A stretch of 64,000 nt of DNA from Eledone cirrhosa (Eukaryota): contig OZ024740.1 in assembly GCA_964016885.1 (NCBI GenBank), positions 301,196,001 to 301,260,000 of the forward strand, written 5' to 3'. Of the stretch, positions 7,052 through 47,602 are shown piece after piece (positions within the stretch are counted from its first letter, which is position 1; each line of letters begins with the position of its first letter). Under the pieces are notes generated by a model. The model was not told the DNA's origin. It saw nothing but the letters and a program-made list of their open reading frames with translations, and did not search any database. The translations under genes and the position numbers were made by a program.

Positions 7052-7112
<61 letters not shown>

Positions 7113-7350: not shown

Positions 7351-7399
<49 letters not shown>

Positions 7400-12580: not shown

Positions 12581-12619
<39 letters not shown>

Positions 12620-13127
12620 CATGTATGTATATATATATATACATACTACTGTACGTATGTATACATATATGTATATACGTATACATACATACATATTTAC
12701 ATTTAAGTAAGTGCCGTATTAAGAGTGAGAAATGAAATTTCGTTTCATTCTATTCCATTTATCGTTTTCGGTGTGCCCGGCCGACTGAACTCACTCGATA
12801 TGCAAATTAGGCTGTTCAGCCGTTAATATGCATGAGGAAAGTATATACTTTCAGACATTCAACCATCTGACAGGAAGGTATACGATGATGACGATCGGTA
12901 ATAAGCTTGAAACTAGTACATCGTTCTTGTGTCAGTGTTGAGCAAAAAGGTAACGTGGTTGCCTAAACACTGTACGGCATAGTTCGGGCTGTTTGTTTGT
13001 TTACAAACAAACAAACCGAGCATTATAATAAATGTCCGGTAAACCGATACGTGCATATATATATGTGTGCATGTATGTATATATATATATATACTACTGT
13101 ACGTCTGTATACATATATGTATGTACC
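12139..13127. repeat. Compound inverted repeat: one arm with two inverted partners
   Basis: 12139-12338 is inverted at 12556-12761; ~12222-12514 is inverted at ~12845-13127. Confidence 0.85.
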
Positions 13128-17984: not shown

Positions 17985-19925
17985 AGAGATTTTCAAAATA
18001 TCCCCCGTTGTCAGGAGGTTTTTGTCATTCAGTATGAAGACATGGAAAACGACACTCCTTTTGAATAGTGAAACAATATTACTCGAAGTTGGAGAAGTTA
18101 ATATTAATTGTGGAATTTTTCAGGGTGACTCTTTATCACCACTTTTATTCTGCATCGCACTTATACCATTAAGTAAAATGCTCAATGAAACAAAACATGG
18201 ATATAGAATCTATGACAAAACCATTAATCACTTGTTCTACATGGATGACCTGAAACTATTTGCAAAAAATGATGAACAATTGCAAGGGCTATTATCTACT
18301 GTGGAGCAGTTCAGTGATGACATTAAAATGGAGTTTGGACTAGATTAATGCGCCAAATCAACGTTCACCAGAGGAAAGCTGCTGAAGAGTTCAGACATTA
18401 ATCTTGATCGGGGGAACGTGATAAGAGAACTTGATCAAGAAAAAACTTACAAATATCTAGGTGTTTGTGAAGGAGACGGAATCAAGCATTCGACAATGAG
18501 GGAAAGGATAAGGAAGGAATGTTACCGCAGAGTAAGAGCAATCTTAAGTACGGAATTGAAAGCAAGGAATATGATCGATGCCATAAACACGCTTGCCATA
18601 CCAGTAGTAACCTACAGTTACAATGTCATCAACTGGTCAAACACAGAGATCCGTAGGCTCGATACAAAAATTCTAAAATTCTTAACCATGCACAGAATGC
18701 ATCACTCTAAGGCAGATATAGATAGAATATATCTCCCTAGGAAAGAAGGAGGACGTGGGTTAGTCCAGTTAGACATTGCGTTGAAAACAATTGGATTATC
18801 TACATATCTAAGGGAATCACATGATTGGATGATGAAACTCGTTTTGAAACACGAAAGCATCAAAAGATCATATTCCATTACAAAAGATGCACAAAGATAC
18901 AGTAATGGACTACACATTTCAGAAGTCCCATTTACTGCTGAAATGGAAAACACAGAAAAAGCAAAGCAGGTAAAAGTAACTGCAAAGAAAGAACTGCTAC
19001 AGAAACTGGCTAAGAAATGGCAAGAAAAGCCTCTGTATGGAAAATACCCTGAACGAGCTAACGATCCTGATATTGACAAAACTTTAACCCATCAGTGGTT
19101 GGATCCTCTGGACTGAAATCGGAAACTGAAGGACTGATTATATCAGCACAAGATCAGTGTCTGCCAACAAAAAATTACCAAGCGAACATAATAAAAAATG
19201 GATGCAGCCCATTATGCCGTGTGTGCAAAAAACAACCAGAGACCATTGACCATATAATTTCAATGTGCAGTCCTATAGCTCCAACCGAATACCTAAACAG
19301 GCATGACAGAGCTGCACAATACATACATTGGATAATGTGTAAGCATTTTGCCCTGCCCCATCAAAAGAATTGGTGGGAGCATCAACCACCTCCCATACTT
19401 GAAAAAGATCACATCTCAATCTTGTGGAACTTTAGCATCCAAACAGACCGAAAAATAGATGCAAACAGACCTGATATAATATTGAAGGACTTTAAAAATA
19501 GGGTATGCCTGCTAATTGATATGTCTGTTCCAATAGACAAGAATGTATCTATAAAATCATTTGAAAAATTGAGCAAGTATAAGGACCTGGAGATAGAAAT
19601 TGGAAAAATGTGGAAATTGAGAACTAAAAGAATACTACTGGTTGTAGGCGCTCTGGGAATGATACCTAAGGGGTCTAATGATTACTTATCGCAAATCCCA
19701 GGAAACCCGCGTATAGGAGAAATACAAAAGATACTACTAATGGGAACTGCCCATATACTAAGGAAGATTCTGTCAATATAAGTACATCACAAGTCTAAAC
19801 ACTAAAGATGCATGTGTGAGTATGTATGTTCTTTCTTGAACATGGCGGACCTTGTTGTCTCTTGAGGTCACTGGTTGTGACTTGGTGATAACTCGTAAGA
19901 ACATAAAGCAAGATAAATGCAACTG
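17985..19925 (+). mobile_element. A2: 5'-truncated Dong family A copy
   Basis: Same motifs as A1; flanked by (TAA)n; internal stop and frameshift. Confidence 0.95.
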
Positions 19926-19969: not shown

Positions 19970-21899
19970 AGAGATTTTCAAAATATCCCCCGTTGTCAGG
20001 AGGTTTTTGTCATTCAGTATGAAGACATGGAAAACGACACTCCTTTTGAATAGTGAAACAATATTACTCGAAGTTGGAGAAGTTAATATTAATTGTGGAA
20101 TTTTTCAGGGTGACTCTTTATCACCACTTTTATTCTGCATCGCACTTATACCATTAAGTAAAATGCTCAATGAAACAAAACATGGATATAGAATCTATGA
20201 CAAAACCATTAATCACTTGTTCTACATGGATGACCTGAAACTATTTGCAAAAAATGATGAACAATTGCAAGGGCTATTATCTACTGTGGAGCAGTTCAGT
20301 GATGACATTAAAATGGAGTTTGGACTAGATTAATGCGCCAAATCAACGTTCACCAGAGGAAAGCTGCTGAAGAGTTCAGACATTAATCTTGATCGGGGGA
20401 ACGTGATAAGAGAACTTGATCAAGAAAAAACTTACAAATATCTAGGTGTTTGTGAAGGAGACGGAATCAAGCATTCGACAATGAGGGAAAGGATAAGGAA
20501 GGAATGTTACCGCAGAGTAAGAGCAATCTTAAGTACGGAATTGAAAGCAAGGAATATGATCGATGCCATAAACACGCTTGCCATACCAGTAGTAACCTAC
20601 AGTTACAATGTCATCAACTGGTCAAACACAGAGATCCGTAGGCTCGATACAAAAATTCTAAAATTCTTAACCATGCACAGAATGCATCACTCTAAGGCAG
20701 ATATAGATAGAATATATCTCCCTAGGAAAGAAGGAGGACGTGGGTTAGTCCAGTTAGACATTGCGTTGAAAACAATTGGATTATCTACATATCTAAGGGA
20801 ATCACATGATTGGATGATGAAACTCGTTTTGAAACACGAAAGCATCAAAAGATCATATTCCATTACAAAAGATGCACAAAGATACAGTAATGGACTACAC
20901 ATTTCAGAAGTCCCATTTACTGCTGAAATGGAAAACACAGAAAAAGCAAAGCAGGTAAAAGTAACTGCAAAGAAAGAACTGCTACAGAAACTGGCTAAGA
21001 AATGGCAAGAAAAGCCTCTGTATGGAAAATACCCTGAACGAGCTAACGATCCTGATATTGACAAAACTTTAACCCATCAGTGGTTGGATCCTCTGGACTG
21101 AAATCGGAGACAGAAGGACTGATTATATCAGCACAAGATCAGTGTCTGCCAACAAAAAATTACCAAGCGAACATAATAAAAAATGGATGCAGCCCATTAT
21201 GCCGTGTGTGCAAAAAACAACCAGAGACCATTGACCATATAATTTCAATGTGCAGTCCTATAGCTCCAACCGAATACCTAAACAGGCATGACAGAGCTGC
21301 ACAATGGATAATGTGTAAGCATTTTGCCCTGCCCCATCAAAAGAATTGGTGGGAGCATCAACCACCTCCCATACTTGAAAAAGATCACATCTCAATCTTG
21401 TAGAACTTTAGCATCCAAACAGACCGAAAAATAGATGCACATAGACCTGATATAATATTGAAGGACTTTAAAAAGAGGGTATGCCTGCTAATTGATATGT
21501 CCGTTCCAATAGAAAAGAATGTATCTATAAAAACATTTGAAAAATTGAGCAAGTATAAGGACCTGGAGATAAAAATTGGAAAAATGTGGAAATTGAGAAC
21601 TAAAAGAATACCAGCGGTTGTGGGCGCTCTGGGAATGATACCTAAGGGGTCTGATGATTACTTATCGCAAATCCCAGGAAACCCGCGTATAGGAGAAATA
21701 CAAAAGATAGTACCAATGGGAACTGCTCATATACTAAGGAAGATTCTGTCAATATAAGTACATCACAAGTCTAAACACTAAAGGTGCATGTTTGAGTATG
21801 TATGATCTTACTTGACATGGCGGACCTTGTTGTCTCTTGAGGTCAATGGTTGTGACTTGGTGATAACTCGTATGAACATAAAGCAAGATAAATGCAACT

Positions 21900-21900
<1 letters not shown>
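19970..21900 (+). mobile_element. A3: 5'-truncated Dong family A copy
   Basis: Same truncation point as A2, offset by 1985 bp; flanked by (TAA)n. Confidence 0.95.
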
Positions 21901-21935: not shown

Positions 21936-21936
<1 letters not shown>

Positions 21937-24900
21937 AGGAACCTGACTGTCAACCAAATACTGCTGATGTTGGAGGAAGGAGAAGAAGGAAAGGGGCCAG
22001 AACCAACTGGACGAAAGAATTGAATAGAACTGTTATGCAATGTTACCTGAAAAGTAACCCCAAGGAGAGGGGCTACAGGAGACGGATGCATAACATCTGG
22101 AACGAGATTGGTTTATTTAAATTAGATGAACAAAAATTGGCCGGGCAGGCTCGGGTAATAAGAACTAATGGATGGATAAGCGAGCTGGAACTGGAGGAAC
22201 TGAGCAGAGAGAATGGCTTGGAGATGGCGGGTGGAGTATGCCAGACAAGCGAGCCAGTGGGAAATGAAGGTGAAGAGGTCCTGAGAACGGAGGAACCACC
22301 CGAAGCAGACAATGATCTGAATACTGAGATAAATAATACCTGGAACAGAGATACGGCCACTGAGGAGATGAATGCTGACGGGCTAGGACAAGATTCGGTT
22401 GACATCCTAAATTTAGTGGTAGATGAATTGAACAATGATAGTGGGAGACCTATGAACCTAAGATTTGTAGACAGGAAAAAGTTAAAAGAAACAACAGCTA
22501 AGGTAAACAAAGTCATCCCATACCTTGAGGCGAGGAGCCTTCACCAGTGCACCAATATCCTCAAAGCAACAGCAAATACGGTGAGGAAACTACTTGGTAT
22601 AAAAGCGAGAGGAAACAACAGACAAGAAAGAGCAGAGCCATGGTGGAAGAAACGACTGTGTGGGCAAATCGGGGAAATGAGAAATGACATAGGAAAGCTT
22701 GAGTCACTACTGAATGGGACACTAAAAAACATAGACACTAAAAATAGACTGGAAATAAAATACAAAACTAGGAGGAAAAAGCTAAATATTATCATAGAGG
22801 AACTGAAGCAACGCATTGTAGCAAAGAGTGCAAAAATCAGGCGATACGAGAACAGAGTCAGTCAGTATAAACAGAACCGCATGTTCGACAACAACCAGAA
22901 GATGCTGTTTGGACAGCTTGAGGGGAAAGAAAGAGGCAACGACTTGATCCCTGGGGCGGAGCAAACTAAAACATTCTGGAGAGGAATATGGGAGCAGGAT
23001 GTTAGACACAATGCCCAGGCAGGGTGGATTGAGACAGTACAGAGGGAGATCGGTGAGCAGGCACAACAACAAACTGATTTGAGTATCACAGTTGAAACTC
23101 TTAAGGGGCAGGCCAAAAAAAAACCAACTGGAAATCACCAGGCCCAGATGGTGTGCAGGGGTATTGGATTAAACATTTAACATCCCTCCACCCGTAGCTG
23201 ACGGCCATGTTCAATGACTGCTTGGTGTCGGGTGAGGTGCCAGAGTGGTTGACAAAAGGTACCACAGTTCTGATAATGAAAAACCGAATCAAGGGTAATG
23301 ATGTTACCAACTATAGACCTATCACATGTCTGTCCGTAATGTGGAAACTGTTGACGAGCATTGTGTCTGAGGAAATCTACCATCACCTCCACACAAACAA
23401 CTTGTTACCGGACGAACAGAAAGGATGCCGAAAGAAGTCACGTGGTACAAAGGACCAGTTGCTTATTGATAAGATGGTAATGGGGAATTGCAGGAGGAGA
23501 CACACTGATCTTGCCATGGGATGGATAGACTACAGAAAGGCATTTGACATGGTGCCTCATTCCTGGATCACCAAAAGCCTGGAGATCTTCAGTGTGGCAG
23601 ATAACATCAGACAGTTGCTAGGCAGGAGTATGGGGTCCTGGGAGACAGAGTTGACATCAACTGCAGTATCCTTGGGAAGCGTGAAGATCAAGAGAGGTAT
23701 CTTCCAGGGAGATAGCCTGTCCCCTCTGTTGTTTGTCCTTGCCCTGATGCCCTTGACCATTATGCTGCGAAAAGTGAGAGCAGGATACAAGTTGGGAAGG
23801 GGAGAGCTTACCATCAATCACCTCCTCTTCATGGACGATCTTAAGCTCTTCGGGAAAAGTGAGAAGGAGTTGGATGTGCTTGTTGACACTGTTCGTATTT
23901 TCAGCAATGATATATGTATGCAGTTTGGTATTAGTAAATGTGGAGTCATTGTGATGAGGAGGGGTAGGTTGAGCAGAAGTGACGGGATCCAGATACCAAC
24001 AGGTGAGATGATAAATGAAATTGACTCTGAGGAAGGATACAAGTATTTGGGCGTTCTGGAGGCTGATGGCATAAAGAACAAAAAAATGAAGGAATTGTTA
24101 AGAACTGAATACATTCGGAGAGTAAGGAGCGTATTGAAGTCACATCTGAACAGCAGAAATGCCATAAGCGCAGTAAATTCCCGAGCTGTGTCTATTATTA
24201 GGTACAGTGCGGGAATTCTGAGATGGAATGTTGCTGAACAAAAAGAAATGGATAGGAAGACTAGGAAGCTATTGACTATCTACAACATGTTCCACAAGAG
24301 GAGTGATGTCGATAGACTCTACCTAAGGAGATCTGAGGGTGGAAGAGGTCTTATCAGCATAGAGGACTGTGTTCAGATGGAGAAAAACAACCTATACAAA
24401 TACGTGACCTATAGTAAGGAGCCAATGCTCAGAACTGTACTGAAGGAGGGGACAGTAGGCCAGGGGATGTCCAAGGAGGAAATAACATCAAGGAGGAAGA
24501 GCAGCCTTAAGGGAAAATCCCTTCATAGTACCTTCTTTGAGAAAACTGAATTTAGAGATCCACAGACATGGAACTGGTTGAGAAGAGGAGACCTCAAAAA
24601 GGCTACAGAAGGAATGCTAATGGCTGCGCAGGAGCAGGCCCTCAAAACGAAGTGGTTGAAGCACCATATCTACAAGGAGGAGGCTAGCCCACTGTGCAGG
24701 ATCTGTGGAGAGAGAGAGGAGACTGTGGCTCACATTGTGTCCGAGTGTAAACACCTAGCCCAAACCCACTATAAGGGCTGGAGACACGATGTGATGGGCA
24801 GGGTGATCCACTGGCACCTGTGCAAAGTAAACAATTTACCACATTCTGAGAAATGGTATGAGCATAGGCCAGAGGCGGTGATGGAGAACAATCAGGTGAA

Positions 24901-25350
24901 GGTGCTGTGGGATTTTAGGATACAGACGGACAAAAAACTGGAACACAATAGACCTGACCTGGTGGTTGTGGACAAAGAAAAAAGATCGTGTCTGATTGTG
25001 GATGTGGCCTGCCCGTTCGACACGAGAGTGCAAGAGAAGGAGAAGGAGAAAATTAACCGATACCAGGACCTAAAATGGGAGGTGAAAAGGATTTGGAACT
25101 GCCATGAAGTCAAAGTGATCCCGATTGTCATAGGCGCACTGGGGACTAACTCCAAAATTTTCCAGGGATGGTTAAAGAAAATCAGCCCCTTCACGCTTTT
25201 TGGAACGCTTCAAAAGGCATGCTTGCTTGGAACAGCAAGAACCCTCCGATACGTCCTGAATATCTGAGGCTGCAGGTAGTGGCTTGATATTCAATCCAAC
25301 GGACTTTCCAGTTAACCAACATCAATGACTGAGATTCAAGGAATAACAAC
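21936..25350 (+). mobile_element. B1: 5'-truncated R4/Dong-clade element, family B
   Basis: ORFs 22020-23180 and 23207-25267 with [66 protein letters not shown]. One frameshift (~23120) and one stop (~23195). Confidence 0.95.
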
Positions 25351-25384
25351 AATAATAATAATAATTATTATTATTATTATTATT
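25351..25384. repeat. (AAT)n|(TTA)n head-on junction, centre of the B1/B2 palindrome
   Basis: gaataacaac aataataataataa|ttattattattattattatt gttgttattc. Confidence 0.95.
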
Positions 25385-28300
25385 GTTGTTATTCCTTGAA
25401 TCTCAGTCATTGATGTTGGTTAACTGGAAAGTCCGTTGGATTGAATATCAAGCCACTACCTGCAGCCTCAGATATTCAGGACGTATCGGAGGGTTCTTGC
25501 TGTTCCAAGCAAGCATGCCTTTTGTAGCGTTCCAAAAAGCGTGAAGGGGCTGATTTTCTTTAACCATCCCTGGAAACTTTTGGAGATAGTCCCCAGTGCG
25601 CCTATGACAATCGGGATCACTTTGACTTCATGGCAGTTCCAAATCCTTTTCACCTCCCACTTTAGGTCCTGGTATCGGTTAATTTTCTCCCTCTCCTTCT
25701 CTTGCACTCTCGTGTCGAAAGGGCAGGCCACATCCACAATCAGGCACGATCTTTTTTCTTTGTCCACAACCACCAGGTCAGGTCTATTGTGTTCCAGTTG
25801 TTTGTCCGTCTGTATCCTAAAATCCCACAGCACCTTCACCTGATTGTTCTCCATCACCGCCTCTGGCCTATGCTCATACCATTTCTCAGAATGTGGTAAA
25901 TTGTTTACTTTGCACAGGTGCCAGTGGATCACCCTGCCCATCACATCGTGTCTCCAGCCCTTATAGTGGGTCTGGGCTAGGTGTTTACACTCGGACACAA
26001 TGTGAGCCACAGTCTCCTCTCTCTCTCTCCACAGATCCTGCACAGTGGGCTAGCCTCCTCCTTGTAGATATGGTGCTTCAACCACTTCGTTTTGAGGGCC
26101 TGCTCCTCCGCAGCCATTAGCATTCCTTCTGTAGCCTTTTTGAGGTCTCCTCTTTTTAACCAGTTCCATGTCTGTGGATCTCTAAATTCAGTTTTCTCAA
26201 AGAAGGTACTATGAAGGGATTTTCCCTTAAGGCTGCTCTTCCTCCTTGATGTTATTTCCTCCTTGGACATCCCCTGGCCTACTGTCCCCTCCTTCAGTAC
26301 AGTTCTGAGCATTGGCTCCTTACTATAGGTCACGTATTTGTATAGGTTGTTTTTCTCCATCTGAACACAGTCCTCTATGCTGATAAGACCTCTTCCACCC
26401 TCAGATCTCCTTAGGTAGAGTCTATCGACATCACTCCTCTTGTGGAACATGTTGTAGATAGTCAATAGCTTCCTAGTCTTCCTATCCATTTCTTTTTGTT
26501 CAGCAACATTCCATCTCAGAATTCCCGCACTGTACCTAATAATAGACACAGCTCGGGAATTTACTGCGCTTATGGCATTTCTGCTGTTCAGATGTGACTT
26601 CAATACGCTCCTTACTCTCCGAATGTATTCAGTTCTTAACAATTCCTTCATTTTTTTGTTCTTTATGCCATCGGCCTCCAGAACGCCCAAATACTTGTAT
26701 CCTTCCTCAGAGTCAATTTCCTTTATCATCTCACCTGTTGGTATCTGGATCCCGTCACCTCTGCTCAATCTACCCCTCTTCATCACAATGACTCCACATT
26801 TACCAATACCAAAACTGCATACATATATCACTGCTGAAAATACGGACAGTGTCAACAAGCACATCCAACTCCTTCTCACTTTTCCCGAAGAGCTTAAGAT
26901 CGTCCATGAAGAGGAGGTGATTGATGGCAAGCTCTCCCCTTCCCAACTTGTATCCTGCTCTCACTTTTCGCAGCATAATGGTCAAGGGCATCAGGGCAAG
27001 GACAAACAACAGAGGGGACAGGCTATCTCCCTGGAAGATACCTCTCTTGATCTTCACGTTTCCCAAGGATACTCCAGTTGATGTCAACTCTGTCTCCCAG
27101 GACCCCATACTCCTGCCTAGCAACTGTCTGATGTTATCCGCCACCCTGAAGATCTCCAGGCTTTTGGTGATCCAGGAATGAGGCACCATGTCAAATGCCT
27201 TTCTGTAGTCTATCCATCCCATGGCAAGATCAGTGTGTCTCCTCCTGCAATTCCCCATTACCATCTTATCAATAAGTAACTGGTCCTTTGTACCACGTGA
27301 CTTCTTTCGGCATCCTTTCTGTTCGTCCGGTAACACGTTGTTTGTGTGGTGGTGATGGTAGATTTCCTCAGACACAATGCATTACGGACAGACATGTGAT
27401 AGGTCTATAGTTGGTAACATCATTACCCTTGATTCGGTCTTTCATTATCAGAACTGTGGTACCTTTGTCAACCACTCTGGCACCTCACTGACACCAAGCA
27501 GTCATTGAACATGGCCGTCAGCTTCGGGTGGAGGGATGTTAAATGTTTAATCCAATACCCCTGCACACCATCTGGGCCTGGTGATTTCCAGTTGGTTAGT
27601 TTTTTGGCCTGCCCCTTAAGAGTTTCAACTGTGATACTCAAATCAGTTTGTTGTTGTGCCTGCTCACCGATCTCCCTCTGTACTGTCTCAATCCACCCTG
27701 CCTGGGCATTGTGTCTAACATCCTGCTCCCATATTCCTCTCCAGAATGTTTTAGTTTGCTCCGCTCCAGGGATCAAGTCGTTGCCTCTTTCTTTCCCCTC
27801 AAGCTGTCCAAACAGCATCTTCTGGTTGTTGTCGAACATGCGGTTCTGTTTATACTGACTGACTCTGTTCTCGTATCGCCTGATTTTTGCACTCTTTGCT
27901 ACAATGCGTTGCTTCAGTTCCTCTATGATAATATTTAGCTTTTTCCTCCTAGTTTTATATTTTATTTCCAGTCTATTTTTAGTGCCTATGTTTTTTAGTG
28001 TCCCATTCAGTAGTGATTCAAGCTTTCCTATGTTATTTCTCATTTCCCCGATTTGCCCACACAGTCGTTTCTTCCACCATGGCTCTGCTCTTTCTTGTCT
28101 GTTGTTTCCTCTCGCTTTTATACCAAGTAGTTTCCTCACCGTATTTGCTGTTGCTTTGAGGATATTGTTGCACTGGTGAAGGCTCCTCGCCTCAAGGTAT
28201 GGGATGACTTTGTTTACCTTAGCTGTTGTTTCTTTTAACTTTTTCCTGTCTACAAATCTTAGGTTCATAGTTCTCCCACTATCATTGTTCAATTCATCTA

Positions 28301-29894
28301 CCACTAAATTTAGGATGTCAACCGAATCTTATCCTAGCCCGTCAGCATTCATCTCCTCAGTGGCGTATCTCTGTTCCAGGTATTATTTATCTCAGTATTC
28401 AGATCATTGTCTGCTTCGGGTGGTTTCTCCGTTCTCAGGACCTCTTCACCTTCATTTCCCACTGGCTCGCTTGTCTGGCATACTACACCCGGCATCTCCA
28501 AGCCATTCTCTCTGCTCAGTTCCTCCAGTTCCAGCTCGCTTATCCATCCATTAGTTCTTATTACCCGGGCCTGCCCGGCCAATTTTTGTTCATCTAATTT
28601 AAATAAACCAATCTCGTTCCAGATGTTATGCATCCGTCTCCTGTAGCCCCTCTCCTTGGGGTTACTTTTCAGGTAACATTGCATAACAGTTCTATTGAAT
28701 TCTTTCGTCCAGTTGGTTCTGGCCCCTTTCCTTCTTCTCCTTCCTCCAACATCAGCAGTATTTGGTTGACAGTCAGGTTCCTGCTGCTGAGCCAGGGGGC
28801 ACCTGTTGGGTGAGAGTCTGTCACATGACGTTCTAGTCTCCATTTCACCGTTATTCGAACTGTTTATGTTCGATATTTAAACACTCTTATCGAGGATTGG
28901 CGAATGTATGGTTACATATCCATCTGTGGATCCGCCATTCCACTTGGCCCTTGTGTGGCATTATCACCACGCTGTATACGAACACACATAAACAAACAAA
29001 AACACAGGCAGAAAGGGCCCCAAAAATGAATAAGCATAAGTTTCATTGTAATGTAGTGTTCGAATGTCTGACTTAGTTTTTGTTTTTTAAGTTTTAGTTT
29101 TTCCCCCCTCTTCTCTGTCCGTCCGCCTGCTTCTCTCTTCATTCTTATTTTCTTTACGTTTTTTTTTGTTTTTTTTTTTGTTTTTGTTTTTGTTTTTCTC
29201 TGTTTGTTTTTCTCGTTTTTTGCTGTTGTTGCTGTGCTGCTTTGGTTTTGTTGTTTGTTTTTTCTTTTTTCTTTTGAGTCTATCTATATATTTTGATGCC
29301 TTCCTCTTTTTTAGCAGTAGGGATTCTATAATGTGGTGGTAGCAGCCAGCTGGAAGATGTGGGAGACTTGCGGCGGTAGCGATACTGAGACAGTGGTGGT
29401 GGTGATGTCGATACCGAGGCAGTGGTGGCGGTGATGTGACCGTATTACTGTAGTGATGGTGCTGTAGCGGTGGTAGCAGTGAAGGAGTGAAGGGGTGGTG
29501 GCGGCGGTGATGGGATAATGGTTGTAATGATGGCCGTAGTGAGCGGTGGTGGTTTAGTGTACACAGGTGATGGGGTGGGTGGTGTATCTAGTTTCTGGTG
29601 TTGGTGAGTTTGGCTGTTCTATATAGTGTAGGCAGAGGAGGAGGGGCGGGTTCTTCTTCCATTTATAGCCATTTTCTTTTTTGGATATACAGTGTACAAT
29701 ACAAAGTTGAATATTTGAATATTTGAGCCTTATAACAATATATTTTGGGTCCGAATTTTTTGGGGCTCAAGCCGGGTGCTTTACGTAGCATTTGTACTAA
29801 GAGTTGTTATTTCACAAATGATTTAAATATGTTAAAAATTCAAAACTTACGGGAGCGATTTCATGACCTCCGTCACCTCGTGCGTCTTCTTCCC
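25385..29894 (-). mobile_element. B2: apparently full-length Dong family B element with ~1.05-kb 5' leader; ORF 28843->25468 is frameshifted
   Basis: Reverse complement of B1 over 25385-28783. The ORF starts METRTSCDR at 28843 and the leader runs to the (TTA)n at 29895. Confidence 0.9.
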
Positions 29895-29968
<74 letters not shown>

Positions 29969-31429
29969 GTTCTTTGAGTCTCTATCATTGATGGTATTTA
30001 ACTGTAAAGTTTGTTCAAATTAATATCAAGCCGCTAGCTGCAGCCTCAGATATTCAGGACGTATCGGAGAGTTCTTGCTGTTCCCAGTAAGCATGCCTTC
30101 TGAAGTGTACCAAACAGTGGGGCTGGACTAACTTTCTTTAACCATCCTTGGAAACCCTTTGAGATAGTACCTAGTGCGCCTATGACAATCGGGACGACTC
30201 TGACTTCATGGCAGTTCCAAATCCTTTTTACCTCCCACTTTAAATCCTGGTATCGGTTAATTTTTTCCCTCTCCTTTTCTTGCACTCTCGTGTCAAATGG
30301 GCAGGCTACATCTACGATCAGTCACGATTTTCTTCCTTGTCCAAAACCACCAGGTCAGGTCTATTGTGTTCCAGTTTCTTGTTCGTCTGTATCCTAAAAT
30401 CCCACAGCACCTTCACCTGATCGTTTTCTATCACCGACTCTGGTTTATGCTTATACCACTTCTCAGAATGTGGTAAATTGTTTACCTTGCATAGGTGCCA
30501 GTGGATCACGCTGCCCATCACATCATGTCTCCAGCCTGTATAGTGAGTTTGAGCTAGGTGTTTACACACGGATACAATATGAACCACAGTCTCGTCTCTC
30601 TCTCCACAGATCCTACACAGTGGGCTAGCTTCCTCCCTGTAAATATGGTGTTTCACCCACTTCGTTTTGAGTGCCTGCTCTCGCGCAGCCATTAGCATTC
30701 CTTCTGTAGCCTTTTTAAAGTCTCCTCTTTTTAACCAGTTCCATGTCTGTGGAACTCTAAATTCAGTTTTCTCAAAGAAGGTATATGAAGGGATTTTTCA
30801 TGAAGGTTGCTCTTCCTCATTGTTGTTATTTCCTCCTTGGACATCCCCTGGTCTATTGTTCTCTCCTTCAGTACAATTCTGAGCATTGGCTCCCTAGTGT
30901 CGGTCACGTATTTGTGCCTGGTTGTTTTTCAGCATCTGAACACAGTCATCTATGCTGATAAGACCTCTTCCACCTTCATATCTCTTTAAGTAGAGTCTAT
31001 CGACATCACTCCTCTTGTGGAACATGTTGTAGATAGTCAATAGCTTCCTAGTCTTCCTATCCATTTCTTTTTGTTCAGAAACATTCCATTTCAGAATTCC
31101 CGCACTGTACCTAATAATAAACACTGCTCGGGAATTCTCTGCACTTATGACTTTCCTACTATTTAGATGAGATTTTAATACGCTCCTTACTCTACTAATA
31201 TACTCAGATGTTATGAATTCCTTCATCTTTTTGTTCTTGATGTCATCTGCCTCCAGAATACCTAAATATTTGTATCCTTCTTCAGTGTCAATTTCCTTTA
31301 TCACCTACCTGTTGGTACATGGATTCCGTTGCTTCTGCTCACTTTACCCCTCTTCATTACTAGGACGCCACACTTATTAATACCAAATGATATACATATA
31401 TCACTGCTGAAAATACGGACAGTGTCAAC

Positions 31430-31432
<3 letters not shown>
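29969..31432 (-). mobile_element. B3: 5'-truncated, diverged family B subfamily copy
   Basis: [39 protein letters not shown], ...RTLRYVLNI. (TTA)n on both sides (29895-29968 and 31433-31460). Confidence 0.93.
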
Positions 31433-31460: not shown

Positions 31461-34400
31461 GGCGACCTACGTAGTAAATCGTATCATCGTGAGCTCCGCA
31501 AAGGTTTGTTATTTCCATTTGTTAAAAATTGTCATTTATGGAAAATTTTATTGTTAACTGTTTATAAGCGCACATACATTGTTTTCCGAAAAGGACACCC
31601 AAAAAGATTGGGGCCTTGTGCCCAAAATTTATACTTTTATTATTATCAAAAAAATTTCTTTGAAAAAAATGGCTAATTCACCTCTGCACCAAACAGCTGA
31701 AAGCCTTCCTCACAAATTAACACCTCACACCGACACCACCATTGTAAATGTTACTTCGTTTGCCAACACAAAAAAAAAAATATAAGCAGTAGCAATATTT
31801 TAAATTTGTCTCAGGCAGACATTCATTTCCCGCCATTGCCAAAGACTGCAGGTGTTAAAGCCTCCACCACCACCACCACCGCGACAACCACCACCCCACC
31901 ACCACCGCGACAACAGAAACAAAAGAAGAAAAAATAAATTAACTCGTGATGTCGAAATGAAATCAAACAAAATGGACTCTTCCCCACCAAAGACGACTGA
32001 CGTCACCACCACCACAACTGAAACTAAAATTAATATTAATACAAATAACGATAGCAACAACAGCAACAATGACATTATAAAACCGACCCTCAGTTTCGCC
32101 AGAGTAGCAAAACAATTCGAAGTATTTACGGTAACCCAAGAAGATTTAGAAAATGCCAAACAAATGGTAAAGAAAGATGGGTACAGGGTCAGCCTCACCC
32201 CTCACCTAATAAAATGGAGCATCGGCGCCTATGCACCGTGTCGTATAGAACAATAAATGTAAAATCGCGCCGAGTGGAACGGGCATCCGAGTCCCAAATC
32301 CAAAAAGCTTTGGGACATGTGTGGGCAAGAAAAACCCACATCAGACGTGGGAAAAAGTATGGAACCGTGGATGTGTTCTTTGAAACACCAGAGGAGGCTA
32401 GAGAACACTCCATGGCCCCATTAAAAAGTGACGACTTCACACTCGTCCCAAGCTATTGTGGCCAGAGACTCGTGAAAATTAGTGTGATCCACGTTCCACC
32501 GGCCATCGAAATTCCCTCGCTAATGGCTGCCGTCCTCGCTGGCATCGAGGCCAACACCAAGATAATCAAAATAGCGAAAGAAAAGCAGGAGAACTGGTCC
32601 GGATCTGGGATGGAGCTCCTGATCCAAGCGGACCAAAAAAGCATTGAGGAGATCGCAGAGGTAATAGATCTCACTGACGGCAGCCACCTCACCGTAATCG
32701 TCGAGGGCAGAAGGCCTAGGTGTGTCGTTTGTGGTGAAGGAATCCACCTAAGAGCTTTCTGCCCTGAAGCTAAAAGGTTGAGGCCACCTCTCTTACCCAC
32801 CCCAGTAACCCAGCCATCAACACCACTAGCAGCAGAAATGGCTGCAACAACTGTAGCAGCAACAACAGAAGCAACTGGAACAGCAACAACCCCAGCAACA
32901 GTAGCAAAACCAACACCACCACCACCCAACGCGCCAGAACTAGCCCAGCGCCTACACCATCCACCACCCGAAAACCAACACCAAAGCCTGTGGAGGATTT
33001 TCCACTCCCCGACCTATCGCAACTGGAGACAAGGTGTGACAACGAGAAGTGTGAAACGGTACAAGTAAAAAAGAAAAAGGGAAAGAGAAGCCAAAACAAT
33101 CTCCTTCCTTCCCCCTCCAAAAACAAAATAGAGAGGGAAACAAATAAACTATCAAACAAAAAAGTTAGGACAGCTGTGCCACCATCCACACCAGCATCAC
33201 CAACCCCATCACCACAAACACCAACACCATCACCATCATTAACCCCAACACCACAAAAGTCACCAAAAAGCGAAACAGAAACAAACCCACAACAAACGCT
33301 AACAAAACATAACAACCAAAATGATACTCACTACACAACATTAAATTTGAACAACAACCAATTATTACACTACATCCAACACAACACCAGCATAACAGAA
33401 AAAGACTACACAACACCCCAAATGTCCACACCACCTCCACACATACAAATCACTCGCATCAGACAGAAAACGTACATGACACTAAAACAAAAATTCCGCA
33501 AAGACATCGGATACTTCCAACAAACACTCTACAGGAGGATTTATAAGAACATCTTTCCGGAGGAGGTCACAAGCAGTGAAAAGGATGGAGAAACCATCCT
33601 TCCTCTACGAGAAGTAACGTAAGTGGTCTTTCCCATCTTTTCCACTCCATTTCAACACGGCCTCACTCAGAATAGGAAGCATAAATGCGCGTGGCTTGGG
33701 GTCGCCATGGGAGAATGGCCACCTGCTCAACGACCTCAGGTCACTAAACATAGATGTAGTGGCCATCAGCGAGACCAGAATCTCCGAAGCACGGACCTTC
33801 GCACCGATCTTCGGCGGCTGCGATGTGTACGCATCTCCCAGCCGTCCGGGATCGGGGGGAGGAGTTGCTGTGCTTTTACGGAGAGGTTTGGATCTCGCCA
33901 TACGGCCCATCTTCCTGGACCCAGAAGGTAAGTTGGTGGGGCTGGACGTGAACAGCGGAGACGGGCAAGATTTGAGGCTGGTGGCCGTCTATGCCCCGAC
34001 AGGAGCAGGGCGGCCTGATTTCTTCCGGCGTCTGGAGACGTTTCTTAGAACGTCCCCCTCTTTAATGTTAGTGGACGACTGGAACAGGATCTTAGATGCA
34101 CACTGGGACTGTGTGGGGTTAGCGGATAAGGGAGGAAGGTGCAATACCCTCACCAACCTGCTCAGGCGTTTTGAACTGTCTGACAGTTACCGATTGGATT
34201 TCCCGAATGTGCCAATGTCGACTTATACAAACCGCATAGGGACATCCAGATCATATCTAGATAGAGTATGTTGTAGGGAAATAGATAGGTCTAGCCTAGG
34301 CTGTCCACAATTCAAGATAGTCAGCTACACAGACCACACATTCGTGATCTGTGTGCTTGATTTAGATAGGCTTCAAAGACGAGGGCCCGGCTACTGGAGG

Positions 34401-37005
34401 CTAAACGCGTTCTTACCAGCGCGCAAGGCCTACATATACCGTATTAGCGAACTAGTTAAGCGGGCGTTCGGGGGGACATCGTCAACAACAGGTGATGGTT
34501 TGCTCTGAAAAGAGCGTTTAGAATAGAGTCCATTATGTTTAGTAAGGCTTTAGCAATAGAGAAAAATAGAGCAGAGGGAGAACTAGTTAGAAGATTAGAC
34601 GAGGCGCTTAGCAAAGGCATCGCGACCGACGTGCTTTCTGCGAAATTGGTCCTTGACCAATTCTTCAATGCAAAGCACGAAGGCTGCGTTCTCAATGCTA
34701 GGATGCGTGCTCTCAGACACGAGGGGACGAAAGCCGTTCAATGAGCCCGAGTGGCGGAGGCGCGTCGTGGCAACAAAGCTACGATCCGGTCTTTGGTGGA
34801 CCACGACGGGGGCATGCTACTCAATCCGGGGCAAATGTGTGAAGCTTTTTAGCGACGCTTCGCACAGCTGTTCGGGGGCTGCGGCGGGCCGGATCGAGGG
34901 ATGGACTTTAGTGTCTACCTCGAAGGACTGCCACGGCCCTCGGCCACTGAGGCGGAGTGTTGCGAAAAGCCGATAACAGCCGCTGAAGTACGGGAGGCAA
35001 TGACTGGCTGCACAAGGGGTAAATCGCCCTATGAACTTTACGTACAGATACCAGACTTGTTCGGAGGCCTCTTGGCGGGCATCTACTGCAACTGGCAACA
35101 GAACGGGAGAATTCCCAGCTCTGTGAGCCGAGGAGCTGTGGCGATGCTGAGAAAGGATCCGAACAAGGGGGATAATATAGATAACTCTGCTAAACACAGT
35201 TCAAGATTTTGGCCAAGGTGCTAGCAAAGAGTGGGCGCTTGCCGTTGGTGATCTGGTGGGAGAGGCGCAGACATGCGCCATTCCCGAGAGATCCATCCAC
35301 GACAACCTCCACCTCATGCGATACATCGTAGAGAGGGTAGCTAGGGAACCTGGCACGGGTGGGTCCTTGATCAATTTAGATCAGTCGAAAGATTTCGATA
35401 GGGTCGACCATCGTTACCTAACGGCAGTCCTGAGTGCGGCTGGCTTTGGCTCGTCTTCAGAGGCTGGATCACTGCCATGCACAGCAACATCTGCTCTGTG
35501 GTGAGAGTGAACGGTCACCTTTCGGAACCGTTCAACATCATGTGCTCGGTCCGCCAAGTATGTCCCCTATCGTCCCTCTTGTACGTATTGACTCTCGAGT
35601 CATTACTGCACAAACTGGAGATGTTGAGGGGGGTCCCGCGCGAACTAGGATGCGGAAGATCCGAGTCAGCATATGCGGACGTTGTCACCGTAGTGGTGTC
35701 GAACGCCAAACACATCAAGGCGATCGGCACTACATTAAGAGAATACGAAGCGGTGACAGGAGCAATGATCAACCAGGAAAAGTAAGTGGGCCGACAGGTC
35801 GGCACCTGGAGAGGCAGTCCATGCCTTCCAACAACATCGTCGGGCGCTGGACGGACGGACCAGTTAAATTGCTTGGGGCCTGCTTCGGTCCGGATCTCCA
35901 GACGGACAAAACTGGGACGAGGTGACGAGCAGGGTGGCTTCTCTTACCCAGAAATGGGCCGAGAGGTAGCTATCCCTGAAAGGTTGAGTGGAGATAGCTA
36001 ACGCGTATATCGCGTCCGTCATCTACTACCCCCTGACTGTCGTACCTTGTCCTAAGCCCCGCCTGATTGCGCTGGAGCGTTTTCTCTTTCACATTTTGTG
36101 GAAGGGACGCGCTCGGATGGTCAGGCGGTCCATCTGCTGTCAACACATTTACGTGGAGGGCTGGCAATGCCGTGGCTGATGATGCGCAGACATGCGCTCA
36201 GGCTACGACAGCTCCACCTCTTCCTCGACGGTGATCAGGTGTGGTCTCCGTTTGCTAGACGCGTCTTTCCCTCACTCGTCTCCTTGACGGAGCTGCAGTC
36301 CTGGGTCAAGCGAAGACCGAGATGTAGCGCTTGGAGACTGGAATGTCTTCAGGCGCTCACAGCCCTCGACCAATCGGGCAATGTGATCGGTGGAAACTCC
36401 ACCTTGGCGTTCAATAGAGGATTAGTGGAGGGGATAGCGACGACGTACTTGGGGAAACTCTAGGCGTCGACGAAAATCAACTAGCCAATCTCTTCGGAAG
36501 AACTTTCGGGCCGGGGCCTATGGACAACTTCCAGAAATACCTGGCCTGGCAGTGCTGCCGAGGAGCTTTGCCAGTTCGGGATAAACTCTACAGGCATGGA
36601 GGTGCCGTCAGCCGGGCATGTCCGAGATGCGCGCAGGGCGACGAAACCGTCCTGCACGCACTCGTCCAGTGTCCGAGCATTGCTGACTTGTGGGTTTATG
36701 TCGAACACCTGCTGTCGCGTGTAGGACGGATCCGGCTATCAGCTGAGTCGATCGTGAGGAATGCCCTGCCCTCTTCCTTTAGCCGGGAAGGGCAGGAAGA
36801 TTTTACCTGTCTGGTGGCCATGGCGAAAGAGATAGTATGGTGGACACGTTTGAAAGGGCTGAAGACGAGCACTTACCGCTTCGGTGATGCCCTGATTAAC
36901 TTTTTCAAATTTCATTTGAAAAGGAAAATCAGATTAGAAAGGGAAGTGCTCTCTTCCCAGCATTTTGTTGAAAGATGGGTGAGAGAGGCAAGAATGGCCC
37001 GAGTC
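31461..37005 (+). mobile_element. T1: decayed L1/Tx1-clade element with intact 5' end and deleted 3' end
   Basis: 5'UTR and ORF1 (31669-33622, zinc knuckle CVVCGEGIHLRAFC) match T3. ORF2 runs from 33657 (ATG mutated to ACG) with many lesions and is fused directly to A4. Confidence 0.95.
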
Positions 37006-39951
37006 AATGCTTTTTTATAATCTATCCAAGCAATCGATAGATTTTTGTGTCTATTATGACAATCTTCCAGTATCATTTTGTTAACCAGAAGCTGATCCTT
37101 ACAGCCATATGAGCCTCGTTTACACCCTTTCTGCTCAATGGGAAATAGGTCATTTGTTATCAGGTGGTCATATGTGTATTCAGTTAGGACTGATGTTAAC
37201 ATTTTATAAGCAAGTTATCGGTCTGTAATTTTTGGGATTGTTTGTCTCATCATTCTTCGGAAGCAGGAATGTAATGCCGTTAACTAGCCATGATGGTATC
37301 TTTTCTGGCTCCTTAACAATTTCATTGTAAAGTTGTCTAACAGCTCATGAGACTCTGTGAAGCCATTTATCCAAAAGTTTTTTATTTTGTCTTTTCCTGG
37401 GGATTTCCATTTGCTGGTTTTTCTTAGAGCCAAGCTCAACTGTTCAACTGTTATATTTTCCCATATTTGTTCCTCAAGGTGAGCTGTATCTTTCATTTGT
37501 CTGTCTATCCATGGGGCATGTATGTTATGAACTTTTTCTTCGGCCCAGATCTTTTCCCAGAATGCTTGCATTTCCTCCTTGGTTGGTATTGATTTAGCAG
37601 TTATTGTTGACTTACCAATTTTTCTGTAGAAGTTTCTTTGGTTGTTTTTGAACATATTATTGTCCTTATAGAATCTAGATCGTTTTTCAAAGCGCCTTAT
37701 ACGAGCAGCTTTGGCCGACACTTTTTGCTTGATTATTTCTATCAACATGTCTATGTCACATGTTGATTTTATACTGTACTTTTTTTTAAAATTTTCTAAG
37801 TTTAGTTTGTTTAAGATGTTCATCTACTTTATAGTTTGTTAAAATTTCTATGTCAGATCGGAGAAGGTTTATTTGGCGATTGATGTTCTCTTGCCAAGTA
37901 GATTTCTTGTGGGAATTCCTTTGTTTTTTCATCTTCACTCCACATAAGTGAGTGGTGACTTTAGCCGATGCATAATAGAGATGATTTAAATCAGTAATGT
38001 TTATTTTGTTTGTGATGATAATGTTTTTAAGAATTATGTTAGTCTTGTGTATTATCTTTTGGTTCTGTCTGGAGTTCTGGATCTTAGGGATGGTGTCTCG
38101 TTGCCCCATGTCAGATTCTTTCATTTTCATCCATTCGATCATAATTTCATCCTTCAAGTTGGCAAGTTCATTCTCATTCATTTCTTTATCATTTACGATC
38201 TCATTATTTTCATTTGGAGTTTCATCTTGAGCATGCACTCCCTCCACTTTTTCGATCCTTTCTTTAATTTGTTCTGTTGCCAGTGACTCCGCCCCAACCC
38301 AGGGATTCGAAGTGTTACAATTTACCTCGTTTTCACTGACACATCTTTTATTTTCCCTTCTCTGACTTTGTGCTGATAGCTTGATCTGATCAATTTCTAT
38401 ATCAGTTAGTAACTTTTTTCTTACAATATTTCTTCGTATATTGGCTAGTTTGTTGCTGTCAATATAGCCTCTGTTTTCGGGATGTTTCTTTTTCCAGTTG
38501 ATATATGTCTGTTCTGTATTCGATGTATTTGATGAGTAGTACATGGCAGTGTAGAAAGCCTCAAGGACTTCTTTATTATCTTCTCTTGAACATTTTACTC
38601 TCTTTTTCTTTGGATTTCTTGGTGGTGAGCATGGAGGGCCAACAGTATGAGTATTCCGGTTATGGGAGGTCTCCAGCTCCGAAGTGATGGGAAGGTTTGA
38701 ACCATTAACTGATTTTTAGACCCCAGTCTGGTTCCTCTCTGAGGGACGCGGCCCTCTTTTACCCGTGATACGGCCGATCCGGTATGAGATTTTATCATTA
38801 GACATTTACTTTATTTTGTCTCGTTTTATCCTTATCCGCCAAGGGGTAACCATTTCGTCTTACCGCTTCTAGAACGAGTGTCAACCAAGACTAGAGGGGT
38901 CGTTCTCCCCTAGAGACACGGCTATTTCCCGCCGGCCGCCATCCCGGTATTTCTTGGTCACGGGGTTTTCTTTTTGTTGTTTTTTTTAAATTGTTATTAT
39001 CATGAGTGGTTCCTTAATGTGAGCATTGCGTGGTTTAAGAATGAAATTATTAATAATTGTCTCCACTCCAGGCACAAGGTCAGCAATCACCCAGTACATT
39101 ACAATAATATAATATACTTTTCTGCTGAAGTTGCCTGTTATTGTTGTTGGCTATGTCGGTGGTGGTGCTGGGGATTTTTATATTGTTGGCGAGGAAGGGG
39201 TGAGCCAGCAGTGCCATAGTTGTTGATGTTGACGTTTGGCCGGTGGCCAGGTCACTAAGTCAATCTATTCATATCTTTTGCTAGCCCCTCCCTTGTCTAG
39301 TGATACCGCCACCTTCCCCTTTCTCTCTCAAGTTAACAGGGGAATAGTGATGGTAGTAATGAAGGAGTGGTGGCGGTGGTGATGGGATAGTGGTAGCAAT
39401 GATGGATGGAGTGGTGTCGGCGGTGGCGTTGTCGTTACTGGGTTTTTTCGATATGTAATATCTATGAGTGTGTGTCGGGTATGTTTAATATATATTGTGT
39501 TGACATATTCCCGTAAAATTGGAATTAAACATTTTGTTAAAAATTGAGACAATAATAATAGTAATTATTATTATGATGCTGGGATTGGTGGTGTTGGTGG
39601 TGAAATTGCCGTTATCTGGCTGTTATATTTAGTGTGATGGGGTAGGTGGTGTATCAAGTTTCTGGTGTTGGTGAAATTGCTGTTATTTGGCTGTTCTATA
39701 TAGTGTAGACAGAGGGTGTTTTCTTCCATTTATAACCATTTTCTTTTTTGAATACAAAATATATAATACAAAATTGAATATTTGAGCGATGTAACAATAT
39801 AATATGGATCCGAAATTTTATGGGACTTGATTCGGTGGTTTATCCAACATTTGTATTAAGAATTGTTATTTCACAATTAATTTAAATATGTTAAAAATCA
39901 AAAACTCACGGGGCGATTTCATGACCACCCCGTGCGTCTTCTTCCCTTCCC
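37006..39951 (-). mobile_element. A4: 5' half of a Dong family A element including its ~1.15-kb leader
   Basis: Colinear with A6 from the leader to AWIDYKKA; ends at the (TTA)n tract 39952-39983. Confidence 0.93.
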
Positions 39952-40196
39952 TTATTTTTATTATTATTATTATTATTATTATTGAATGCCATGGTTGACG
40001 GAGGCTCGGCTCTGTAAGGTATAGTAATTTTTAACCGTTAAAACAATTGTAAATTGTTTAAAACTTGAACCAAATTGTTGATAAAGACACCCTCCTCCTC
40101 GTGAGAGGGGTCTTTCTGTCCGTTATTTGGCCCTTCGGGGTTAAATAACCAGTTATTGGGGTTTTGTACCCAAAATTTCATTTTAAACAAAAAAAC

Positions 40197-42268
40197 ATGG
40201 CTACCAAAAAGAAATTTCATACGTCACTCCCACTCATTCCGTCTTCTTCTTCCTCAATCATCACTACAGCAGAGAGAAGATTGTCTCTCTCCCTCCCTTC
40301 TTTAAATGTGTCTCTCTCCCTCCCTTCTCTTTCGCAAGCGACGAAAGAAAAGAAAAGTCTCGTGCAAAGCGTGCAAGGTTTCTCCACGACGACGACGACA
40401 GCGACGAAACAGGTGTGCGGGAAATACGAAAACCCAGTTCATTCGTCTGACGTCAGGAATAATAGCAGTAGCAGCCGTAATAACAACAGCAACAGTGACA
40501 ATGAAAACAACAGTAGCAGCCGCAACAGCATCACCAGCAGCATAAACAACAACAGCATTAGCAGCAGCAACACCAACAACAACCACAGCAACAGCGGCGG
40601 AGGCAGTAGTCGTAGTACCTGCAGCAACAAAAGTACCAGCAGCTCTGACGACAACAACAACAGCAGAGAAAAACCAATCTCATTTGCAGGTATTGCGAAA
40701 AACTTGGAAACAATCCTCATAACAAATGAGGAATTAGAGGAAGCGAAGAAGATGGTGACAAAGAAAGGACACCGAGCAATCTGCAAGGCAGCGAAAAATT
40801 TTTTCGAAACCCAAGAGCACTGTACGGTCACGTACCGTACAGTAAGTACAAAATCCCGTAGGGTGGAAAGAGCCACAGAGGCCCAAATACAAAAAGCCTT
40901 GGGGTCTGTGTGGCAGAGGAAAACGCACATCACCCGAGGCAAAAAATACGCCACCGTAGACGTACTTTTTGCCACACCCCAGGAGGCAAAGGCCCAATCA
41001 GTAGTGACCCTAAGGAGCGAGGAAATGGTGTTGGTGCCCTCCTACTGCGGGCAAAAAATTGTGAGGGTCAAACTGACCCACGTCCCCCCCGGAATGACCC
41101 CTTCTTGGCTGGCCGCGTCTGTCCTCGTCGGAATCGAGGACAAAACAACTGTACTGCAAGTACAGAAAAAAGTAAGAGAAGATTGGGTCGGCTCCTCCAT
41201 TGAGATGCTAATCCAAACCAACCAGGAGTGCATCGAAGCTATCCCGGATGTGATAGACTTCGATAACGGCACTCAACTGCCCATAAGTGTTGAGGGCAAA
41301 CGCCCGAAATGCTTTCGCTGTGGATCGAAGACTCACCTCAGGGCCTTCTGCAACGAGAAGACCCTGAGAAAGGAGAAAACCCCCCTCCTTCCGAATCCGG
41401 CTCCACGGCTACCAGGAACGATAGGTCCGTGGCACCCATACCCACTCCACGGAAATCAAAGACAGCAGCAGCAGTGGAAATATTAACAACAACAACAGCA
41501 ATACCAAATGCAGCTGCAACAGAGACTCCAGTGCAAACATCACCAACAACAACAAGTGAAAGAGTGGAGCTGGTACCCCTCCCCGACCTTACAGAATCAG
41601 ACATGGAGTGTGAGGTGGGAGAGGGATGGCAAAAGGTCGCAAGAAGGCACAAACGCAGAAGCAGCGCATCGTCGCCTTTGAAAAGGGAGGAAAGAAATGA
41701 GAAAAGGGTAAAGTCTACTGCAAAGAGACCCACAGCAGCAACACCACCAACACCATCACCACCCACACCAGCACCACCATCACCACCGGCGACAACCCCA
41801 CCGCCAACAACACCTTCAACACCACCACCACAAGCACCAACATCGCAAACACAACAACAAAACACACACACCCAGCAACAACGACAAGAAAATAGCAGAA
41901 CCACACCCCACCCCCAGAAAAACAAATGCACGGCAATAAACACACACAACAAGAAACTAATGACTTACATAATTGAACACACAGACATTTCACAACAGGA
42001 CTACATAATACCAGCACCAATCAAAACGCCAACTAACATAAGACTGCTAAAAATAGCACAGAAACAATACACAAACATTAAAACGAAATTCCCCAACGCA
42101 GTTGGTGATTTCAGGGACCTAGGAGGAACCATCAATCGAAGAGTATATTCAGACATTCTCTTAGAAGAGCCGACGACCAGCCGAAGGGACGATTCAACGG
42201 TCCCTTCACCAGACGATCAAGTGAAAAGGGATGTAAAAACCATCCCTCCTCTACCAAAAGTACGGTAA
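40197..42268 (+). pseudogene. T2 ORF1 (gag-like nucleic-acid-binding protein), one frameshift near 41400-41460
   Basis: MATKKK start, S/N-rich low-complexity region, RRM-like core (KYATVDVLF), CCHC knuckle CFRCGSKTHLRAFC, P/T-rich region, stop at 42266-42268. Confidence 0.85.
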
Positions 42269-42302
42269 GTGGTCTTTCCCATCTTTTCCACTCTATTTAA
42301 AC

Positions 42303-45984: not shown

Positions 45985-46053
<69 letters not shown>

Positions 46054-46055
<2 letters not shown>

Positions 46056-47584: not shown

Positions 47585-47602
47585 TATTATTATTATTATT
47601 AT

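Follow-up and report, generated by a model that had tools for sequence, protein, structure and literature searches.

Two families of putative Dong-like retrotransposons, A and B, begin with the same stretch of DNA in the 64,000-nucleotide segment of the Eledone cirrhosa genome analysed here (the window). The lateral origin of this shared block is near certain from the comparisons below. With a probability of about one half, we propose that both lineages carry a captured L1-type module, putatively a promoter, of which the block is the visible front.

A preliminary description of this DNA had reported a 5' terminus of ~330 bp common to A and B, and blastn bears this out: the block of B2 matches that of A4 at 77.9% over 339 columns (E = 6e-73) and that of A6 at 77.1% over 314 columns (E = 5e-61; Table 1). 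The match does not run base-for-base as first described, since 264 of 302 aligned columns are identical between B2 and A4 with 8 gaps (K2P 0.139) and 243 of 280 between B2 and A6 with 10 gaps (K2P 0.146), or 87% in both comparisons; the two A copies agree at 270 of 288 (K2P 0.066). Three of the motifs on which that description relied occur exactly three times, one per copy, and a fourth, a 16-mer, exactly twice (29879-29894 and 39931-39946); none of 100 shuffles equalled these counts. Read on the sense (minus) strand, each of the three copies opens with the block, directly next to a (TAA)n tract. In B2 it consists of an AT-rich, UTR-like part of ~225 nt, an A-run with an ATG at 29672, a second ATG at 29662, and then C/A-rich sequence. 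Two other identities were considered and rejected: the 3' end of a plus-strand element (no L 3' end matches, and the block is colinear with further leader sequence) and a segmental duplication of A4 and A6 (their 5' junctions differ and their neighbours cannot be aligned).

Table 1. Features of the retrotransposon array and of the shared 5' sequence; positions refer to the window
Feature	Position	Strand	Remarks
Shared block 1, B2	29567-29894	minus	5' end of element
Shared block 1, A4	39634-39946	minus	5 further nt up to 39951
Shared block 1, A6	52170-52463	minus	first ~27 nt missing
Shared block 2, B2	29465-29549	minus	colinear with A4 39426-39345
Possible shared block 3 (weak), B2	29279-29314	minus	against A6 51881-51845
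A-only stretch between blocks 1 and 2, A4	39427-39633	minus	~207 nt
A-rich low-complexity tract, B2 leader	29080-29280	minus	63-66% A; no TAA repeats
3' fragment of SINE-like repeat, A leader	39045-39102, also 51628-51685	minus	58 nt; matches 62162-62218
(TAA)n target tract at B2 5' junction	29895-29968	n/a	
Family A copy	15852-17940	plus	5'-truncated
A2, family A	17986-19925	plus	5'-truncated
A3, family A	19971-21900	plus	5'-truncated
A4, family A	37006-39951	minus	5' end intact; 3' part deleted, joined to L2
Family A copy	46055-47587	minus	
A6, family A	47603-52467	minus	near full-length; ORF from ~51387, one frameshift
B1, family B	21936-25345	plus	5'-truncated; 98.7% identical to B2, tail to tail with B2
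B2, family B	25390-29894	minus	ORF start ~28843; frameshifts break ORF
B3, family B	29969-31432	minus	5'-truncated; 88% identical to B1 and B2
Older L copy	1-4230	plus	
L2, family L	31461-37009	plus	
L3, family L	39984-45986	plus	
L4, family L	52493-58396	plus	same type as L2
L2 5'UTR	31461-31676	plus	
L3 5'UTR	39984-40204	plus	closest look-alike of shared block
L4 5'UTR	52493-52708	plus	weaker look-alike

Families A and B have a single ORF with a reverse transcriptase (RT), followed by a CCHC finger and a PD-(D/E)xK-type endonuclease; the CCHC and PD motifs were found by regular expressions. The ORF of A6 has 1003 aa in its RT, CCHC and restriction-like endonuclease (RLE) part. Pfam detects RVT_1 alone in A, with no Exo_endo_phos domain, and all five PDB matches of the A protein are R2 proteins. 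The elements insert into (TAA)n and end in TAA repeats at the 3' end. We label both families Dong-like from this architecture and target, their relatives bearing no clade names. The third family of the array, L, has two ORFs, the second with an APE domain, an RT and a C-terminal zinc finger (Pfam); its best PDB matches are LINE-1 ORF2p (E = 2e-51) versus R2 (E = 3e-21). We take the L elements to be L1-group and, provisionally, Tx1-like; none of 34 matches is itself named Tx1. Of seven relatives of L ORF1, five carry names, all of them octopods, at 25-36% identity. The L elements are flanked by microsatellites, as are Kibi and Koshi (PMC4494074). The microsatellite targets given for Tx1 elements in the relevant text of that source are TC, TTC, TTCC and TTTC, with no TAA-type target among them. 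Members of the L family sit in (TTA)n with a polarity opposite to that of the Dong-like elements (31461, 39984, 52493, 45987, 58397), an arrangement that gives head-to-head and tail-to-tail pairs. Within this family, ORF2 of L3 is 96% identical to that of L4 and the first 2.2 kb are different, ORF1 of L3 having 46-63% amino acid identity to those of L2 and L4 (39984-42220 versus 52493-54652 and 31461-33575). On this sequence pattern we read L3 as a swap of 5' modules within the L1-group family, with the joint near the ORF1/ORF2 boundary.

The proteins of A and B are 41-44% identical (299 of 684 aligned residues), their third codon positions are 31% identical, and their four-fold sites agree at 24 of 87 (28%), silent sites being saturated. 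Outside the leader, blastn finds only a match of ~52 nt in the RT, and the 3'UTRs (141 and 76 nt) share only a local match of 12 nt; the view that the proteins and 3'UTRs belong to clearly different families is upheld. A FastTree phylogeny of A6, B1 and 118 of 120 relatives (two with fewer than 600 aligned columns were dropped, and the relatives had been picked by likeness to A) ranks B 117th of 119 by nearness to A, 2.15 substitutions per site away. In a consensus fold of the block, none of 58 predicted pairs is compensatory and the covariation term is unfavourable. An AT-rich, non-coding block with no sign of conserved structure would not stay 87% identical over such a distance, and we conclude that it was transferred; to this extent the earlier suggestion that the 5' end was gained non-vertically stands.

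Homology between the leaders extends beyond block 1. The leaders had first been described as different outside the ~330 bp, with a breakpoint to be mapped near 29565, but 29565 is an indel. Beyond block 1, homology restarts after 17 nt of B2 sequence and ~207 nt of A4 sequence, as a second, colinear block whose score was reached by 0 of 200 shuffles (85% over 54 nt, E = 6e-10 by blastn). Because homology resumes beyond the A-only stretch, the recombination point must lie at or beyond 29465. The intervening sequence, which B2 lacks, is partly a local duplication of block 1 (39635-39578). A third block is possible (1 of 200 shuffles, among 46 tile tests), flagged against A6 and not against A4. 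The module probably meets the B core in the A-rich tract of the B2 leader, and TAA repeats, the mark of ordinary insertion junctions in the array, are absent between the two. In all, the leaders of A and B measure ~1.05-1.15 kb and contain 12-14 upstream ATGs (1051 nt and 12 in B2), which would be an obstacle to translation by scanning. The SINE-like fragment in the A leader indicates that this leader has gathered insertions since the capture or before it.

The replacement had also been called recent, which holds relative to the A/B split and fails relative to the present copies. The divergence of the block from B2 to the A copies is four times that of the A ORFs (0.035) and ten times that between B1 and B2 (0.013), and is close to that between B subfamilies (0.127-0.134). 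The B2 block lies ~0.11 from the A4/A6 ancestor and B2 is only 1.3% from B1; barring homogenisation of B1 and B2 as an inverted pair, the B2 block was thus not copied from the present-day A master, and B2 also lacks the ~207-nt A-only stretch. The 5' end of B1 is an ordinary truncation onto TAA repeats, and the differences between B1 and B2 are spread evenly. A4 and A6 differ in their neighbours and in their 5' junctions on TAA tracts, which means that leader and body have travelled as a unit at least twice and that the module is mobilised along with family A. The copies B2 and A4 open with one and the same 16-mer, which is what RNA templates sharing a start site would produce. Polarising the differences between A and B with the L outgroups indicated no direction (6 v 9, 10 v 6 and 9 v 7). 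Among the A copies, divergence is higher in the leader than in the ORF (0.066-0.086 versus 0.035), and no clear clustering appears among the conserved columns of the block (271 of 5000 shuffles); neither result speaks for selection on the block.

A candidate source for the block lies in the same array. The L copies start with an AT-rich 5'UTR of ~215 nt, an A-run and the ATG of ORF1; the ~225 nt of the block are likewise followed by an A-run and an ATG in the same local context, and the sequence further downstream is C-rich and then A-rich, like the last third of L ORF1. In a six-way alignment the block is 53-54% identical to L3 and 44-47% to L2 and L4, which are themselves 49-50% identical to L3. 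Block and L3 5'UTR align end to end. Of 600 shuffles confined to 25-nt windows, 0, 4 and 0 equalled or exceeded the global scores; two other scorings gave 0-5 of 600, and removal of the last 22 nt, with the ATG end, gave 3, 14 and 1 of 600. Against L2 and L4, 9-91 of 600 strict shuffles reach the score. Among 6110 background windows, the top window for B2 is the start of L2, with L starts in four of the top seven, and the top window for A6 is the L3 5'UTR; the top windows for A4 are not L starts. Neither A4 and A6 nor L2 and L4 are independent, so these tests amount to about two.

Other searches were less favourable. The link to the L 5'UTRs has nhmmer E-values of 0.21-0.51, a profile of the 330 nt misses the L UTRs at E = 10, and unrelated AT-rich windows reach local scores of 50-59 versus 33-53 for the L UTRs. 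No trace of an ORF1 protein was detected on the sense strand, tblastn with 150 ORF1 relatives giving one antisense match (E = 0.007); the ORF1 core domain and CCHC knuckle are absent from the leaders after the block, where the likeness is one of low complexity only. A search with the whole L3 ORF1 gave no match among 8000 candidates, and the leader matched none of 120 Dong relatives. A likeness seen by eye between the leader peptide and one ORF1 N-terminus was discarded when 109 of 300 shuffles proved as good. Taken together, the UTR alignments point weakly to an L1-group origin of the block, and we lean towards that origin. A replacement between families in the sense of a direct swap between A and B, as first put forward, fits less well, for the likeness to an L1-group 5'UTR of the same array points to a third donor.

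L1-type LINEs carry an internal promoter at their 5' ends, and the scenario that we favour builds on this. In B2 the borrowed 5' module would measure 430 nt or more, perhaps 620 nt, with the shared block as its front part. Its donor would most likely be an L1-group, Tx1-like 5' end comprising an internal Pol II promoter, the 5'UTR and the start of ORF1, from an element whose full form is absent from the window. Two distant Dong-like RLE lineages would have acquired the module, each on its own or one from the other, through a jump of the Dong RT from the 5' end of its own RNA to the donor RNA; the R2 enzyme jumps onto other RNAs in vivo (PMC3414825). Alternatively, the joining may have been a deletion or inversion within a nested (TAA)n array such as this one, which shows events of both kinds (a deletion joint at 37006 and a polarity flip at 25364/25365). 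Since the microsatellite of all four L copies with a visible end either runs opposite to that of Dong or is absent, joining by simple head-to-tail deletion would require an inversion or another donor family. The chimera would then be transcribed from the new +1 and become a master, with the module travelling within Dong RNA, and the second Dong lineage would gain it from the donor or from the first lineage, while the ORF1 remnant would decay into the long leader. In this way the module would supply the transcription start that a ribozyme-type Dong obtains by read-through and self-cleavage. Both the joining mechanism and the status of the module as a feature of family B are putative, B2 being the only full-length B copy in the window.

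Two alternatives deserve serious attention, each of them unlikely in our assessment. In the first, 5' ends were exchanged directly between A and B, the module being native to one Dong lineage or captured from the host and its likeness to L compositional. A and B do co-occur with the same polarity in one array, the similarity to L is not significant by nhmmer and comes without protein support, and for mouse L1 a passage of 5' ends among co-active families has been described (PMC3600994). The similarity to L3 nonetheless survives shuffling of local composition under three scorings, and also without the ATG end, and a direct swap would have to be older than the present A master.

In the second, B2 is a one-off chimera, made when, during its insertion, the B RT jumped to RNA of the donor or of an older A subfamily absent from the window, and family B as such has no module. 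This fits a 5' end seen in only one of the three B copies, the in vivo template jumps of the related R2 enzyme (PMC3414825), and a frame from 29662 with 2 stops in 200 codons, which may mean little decay, although stops are scarce in T-poor sequence in any case. Present-day A cannot have been the template (0.11 versus 0.013), nor can an intact L-type ORF1 mRNA, because the core domain is missing, and the full-length B2 has no other recognisable 5' structure. Should it hold, our case would shrink to the capture of a leader by family A plus one chimeric copy.

That the module is a separate small mobile element which prefers TAA tracts and landed beside Dong 5' ends is improbable. Both leaders do have A-rich tracts near its end, and a degenerate TAA-like run (39000/51583) stands just before the A core; against this, no solo copy is found in 64 kb with many TAA tracts, all three strong matches are Dong 5' ends, the B junction has no TAA repeat, and A4 and A6 have a common internal junction with different outer ones. 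Inheritance of an old functional 5' RNA element by both families from before they split can claim the stretches of 15-22 invariant columns, and is nearly ruled out by the saturated silent sites, the protein distance, the lack of compensatory pairs or an Rfam match, and the fact that the A copies conserve the block no better than the ORF. An assembly error, or gene conversion in which A4 or A6 overwrote B2 locally, would suit a nested repeat array with an inversion point and a deletion joint, and is just as hard to credit when B2 differs from both A copies equally (13% plus 8-10 gaps).

Our preferred reading of a captured L1-type module bears on how such elements are expressed. The Dong element of Bombyx mori (R4 clade) resembles A and B in its one ORF, with RT, CCHC finger and restriction-like endonuclease motif, and in the TAA repeats at its two ends (PMC3774820, PMC5786205). 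Its 5' HDV-like ribozyme cleaves itself from a longer transcript (PMC3774820), and elements of the R4 clade are thought to rely on read-through (PMC5786205). Here, by contrast, no HDV-like ribozyme was detected at or behind the 5' end with a descriptor run without a positive control, and a leader of over 1 kb, its front resembling an L1-group 5'UTR, is common to two distant families. That descriptor gave no hit in B2 or A6 and one non-canonical hit in A4, with matches in 7 of 60 shuffles, and a scan for P3-L3 hairpins found nothing canonical. Rfam returned no match in the whole window at gathering score, and 1 and 4 chance-level matches on the leaders at E = 10. Sliding folding z-scores over 49 windows had lowest values of -3.0 and -2.9, with none below -0.7 in B2. 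A G+C-rich long-range helix spans the start of the A ORF (51338-51532, minus strand; z = -2.05, 9 of 200 shuffles) and is predicted in A4 too; this region was chosen by eye, as was that of the B core helix (z = -0.56). The former may be a mark of the original 5' domain of family A.

Internal promoters are characteristic of L1-type 5' ends (PMC5786205), and we infer a putative promoter function for the module by analogy. A TATA-like heptamer lies between both ATGs in all three copies (29667, 39734 and 52268, minus strand), 200-228 nt inside the element. Each leader also has one splice-donor-like GTRAG(T/G) site at the same position near the 5' end (29850, 39909 and 52446, minus strand), where a single substitution preserves the consensus, and a T/G-rich stretch ending in AG near 28973, below the threshold used, could be the acceptor in B2. 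Splicing of the leader would take out most upstream ATGs.

Comparable hybrids are known. In the R2/R1 SIDEs of Drosophila, the 5' end of one non-LTR clade likewise stands on the body of another in a shared target array; these have repeated origins, for which template jumps or non-homologous recombination are proposed (PMC3414825). SIDEs join the ribozyme of an RLE clade to the 3' end of an APE clade and are, as described in that source, non-autonomous and internally deleted (PMC3414825), whereas the present case is their mirror image, in which RLE elements with a full ORF bear what looks like the 5' end of an APE clade. We rejected A6 and B2 as SIDEs of the R2/R1 type, both of them spanning the whole ORF with no ribozyme detected. 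Recruitment of 5'UTRs by mammalian L1 shares with our case the replacement of the 5' terminus, the transfer between co-active families and strand switching as a candidate mechanism, and is presented as exchange among close relatives of one clade (PMC3600994). The recipients here are far more distant in protein sequence and the probable donor is of another endonuclease class; L3 versus L2 and L4 is a plain case of an L1-type 5' exchange. The 5' extensions of SINEU-2 and the MAST2-driven SVA also turn foreign or flanking sequence into a heritable 5' end that may supply transcription; in the account of that source they are non-autonomous, and the captured sequence is not common to two distant autonomous families (PMC4494074). 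We found no report of an L1-group 5' end on a Dong/R4 element, or of one common to two Dong families, in the mostly open-access literature that was searched; the Octopus vulgaris consensus library (PMC13282606) may already contain such families.

The transcription of microsatellite-targeting RLE elements outside rDNA is poorly explained, the known route being read-through followed by ribozyme cleavage (PMC3774820, PMC5786205). A captured Pol II promoter, if real, would free Dong-like elements from their neighbourhood, and would carry 5'-end recruitment, known within mammalian L1, over to protein-coding elements of different endonuclease classes. Among the LINE classes of O. vulgaris, Dong-R4 has the most recently active insertions (1129 of 2533; PMC13282606, Table 1). 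The module is a testable candidate for Dong-R4 expression in octopus if our reading is correct. More tentatively still, and with the odds somewhat against it, an L1/Tx1-type promoter module may have replaced ribozyme and read-through in two deeply separated, autonomous RLE lineages, with (TAA)n arrays serving as sites where LINE clades of different endonucleases exchange 5' control modules; this could underlie the large recent activity of Dong-R4 in octopus.

Further observations concern the surroundings. From ~15.8 to 58.5 kb the window is a single nested array of non-LTR retrotransposons with (TAA)n tracts between elements. A2 (17986) and A3 (19971) have the same 5' truncation point and are 98.8% identical, which suggests a duplication in tandem inside the array. 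The microsatellite changes polarity between B1 and B2 (25344-25391, at 25364/25365), where these two copies form an inverted repeat of 3.4 kb, and all Dong-like copies are on the plus strand left of the flip and on the minus strand right of it. The deletion joint at 37006 has no TAA spacer; L2 lacks its last ~270 nt there and A4 its last ~2 kb. A SINE-like repeat of ~190 nt occurs at 62162-62351, 4597-4781 and 62368-62538; it has a tRNA-type head on the minus strand, with a likeness to A and B boxes judged by eye. ARAGORN found no genes. A tandem repeat at 8094-9051 consists of 4.2 copies of ~173-nt units with open frames. Finally, inverted arms of 60-190 nt, 88-97% identical, surround (TA)n tracts at 6485-7352, 12138-13038 and 58560-59166, and are possibly MITE-like or foldback elements.
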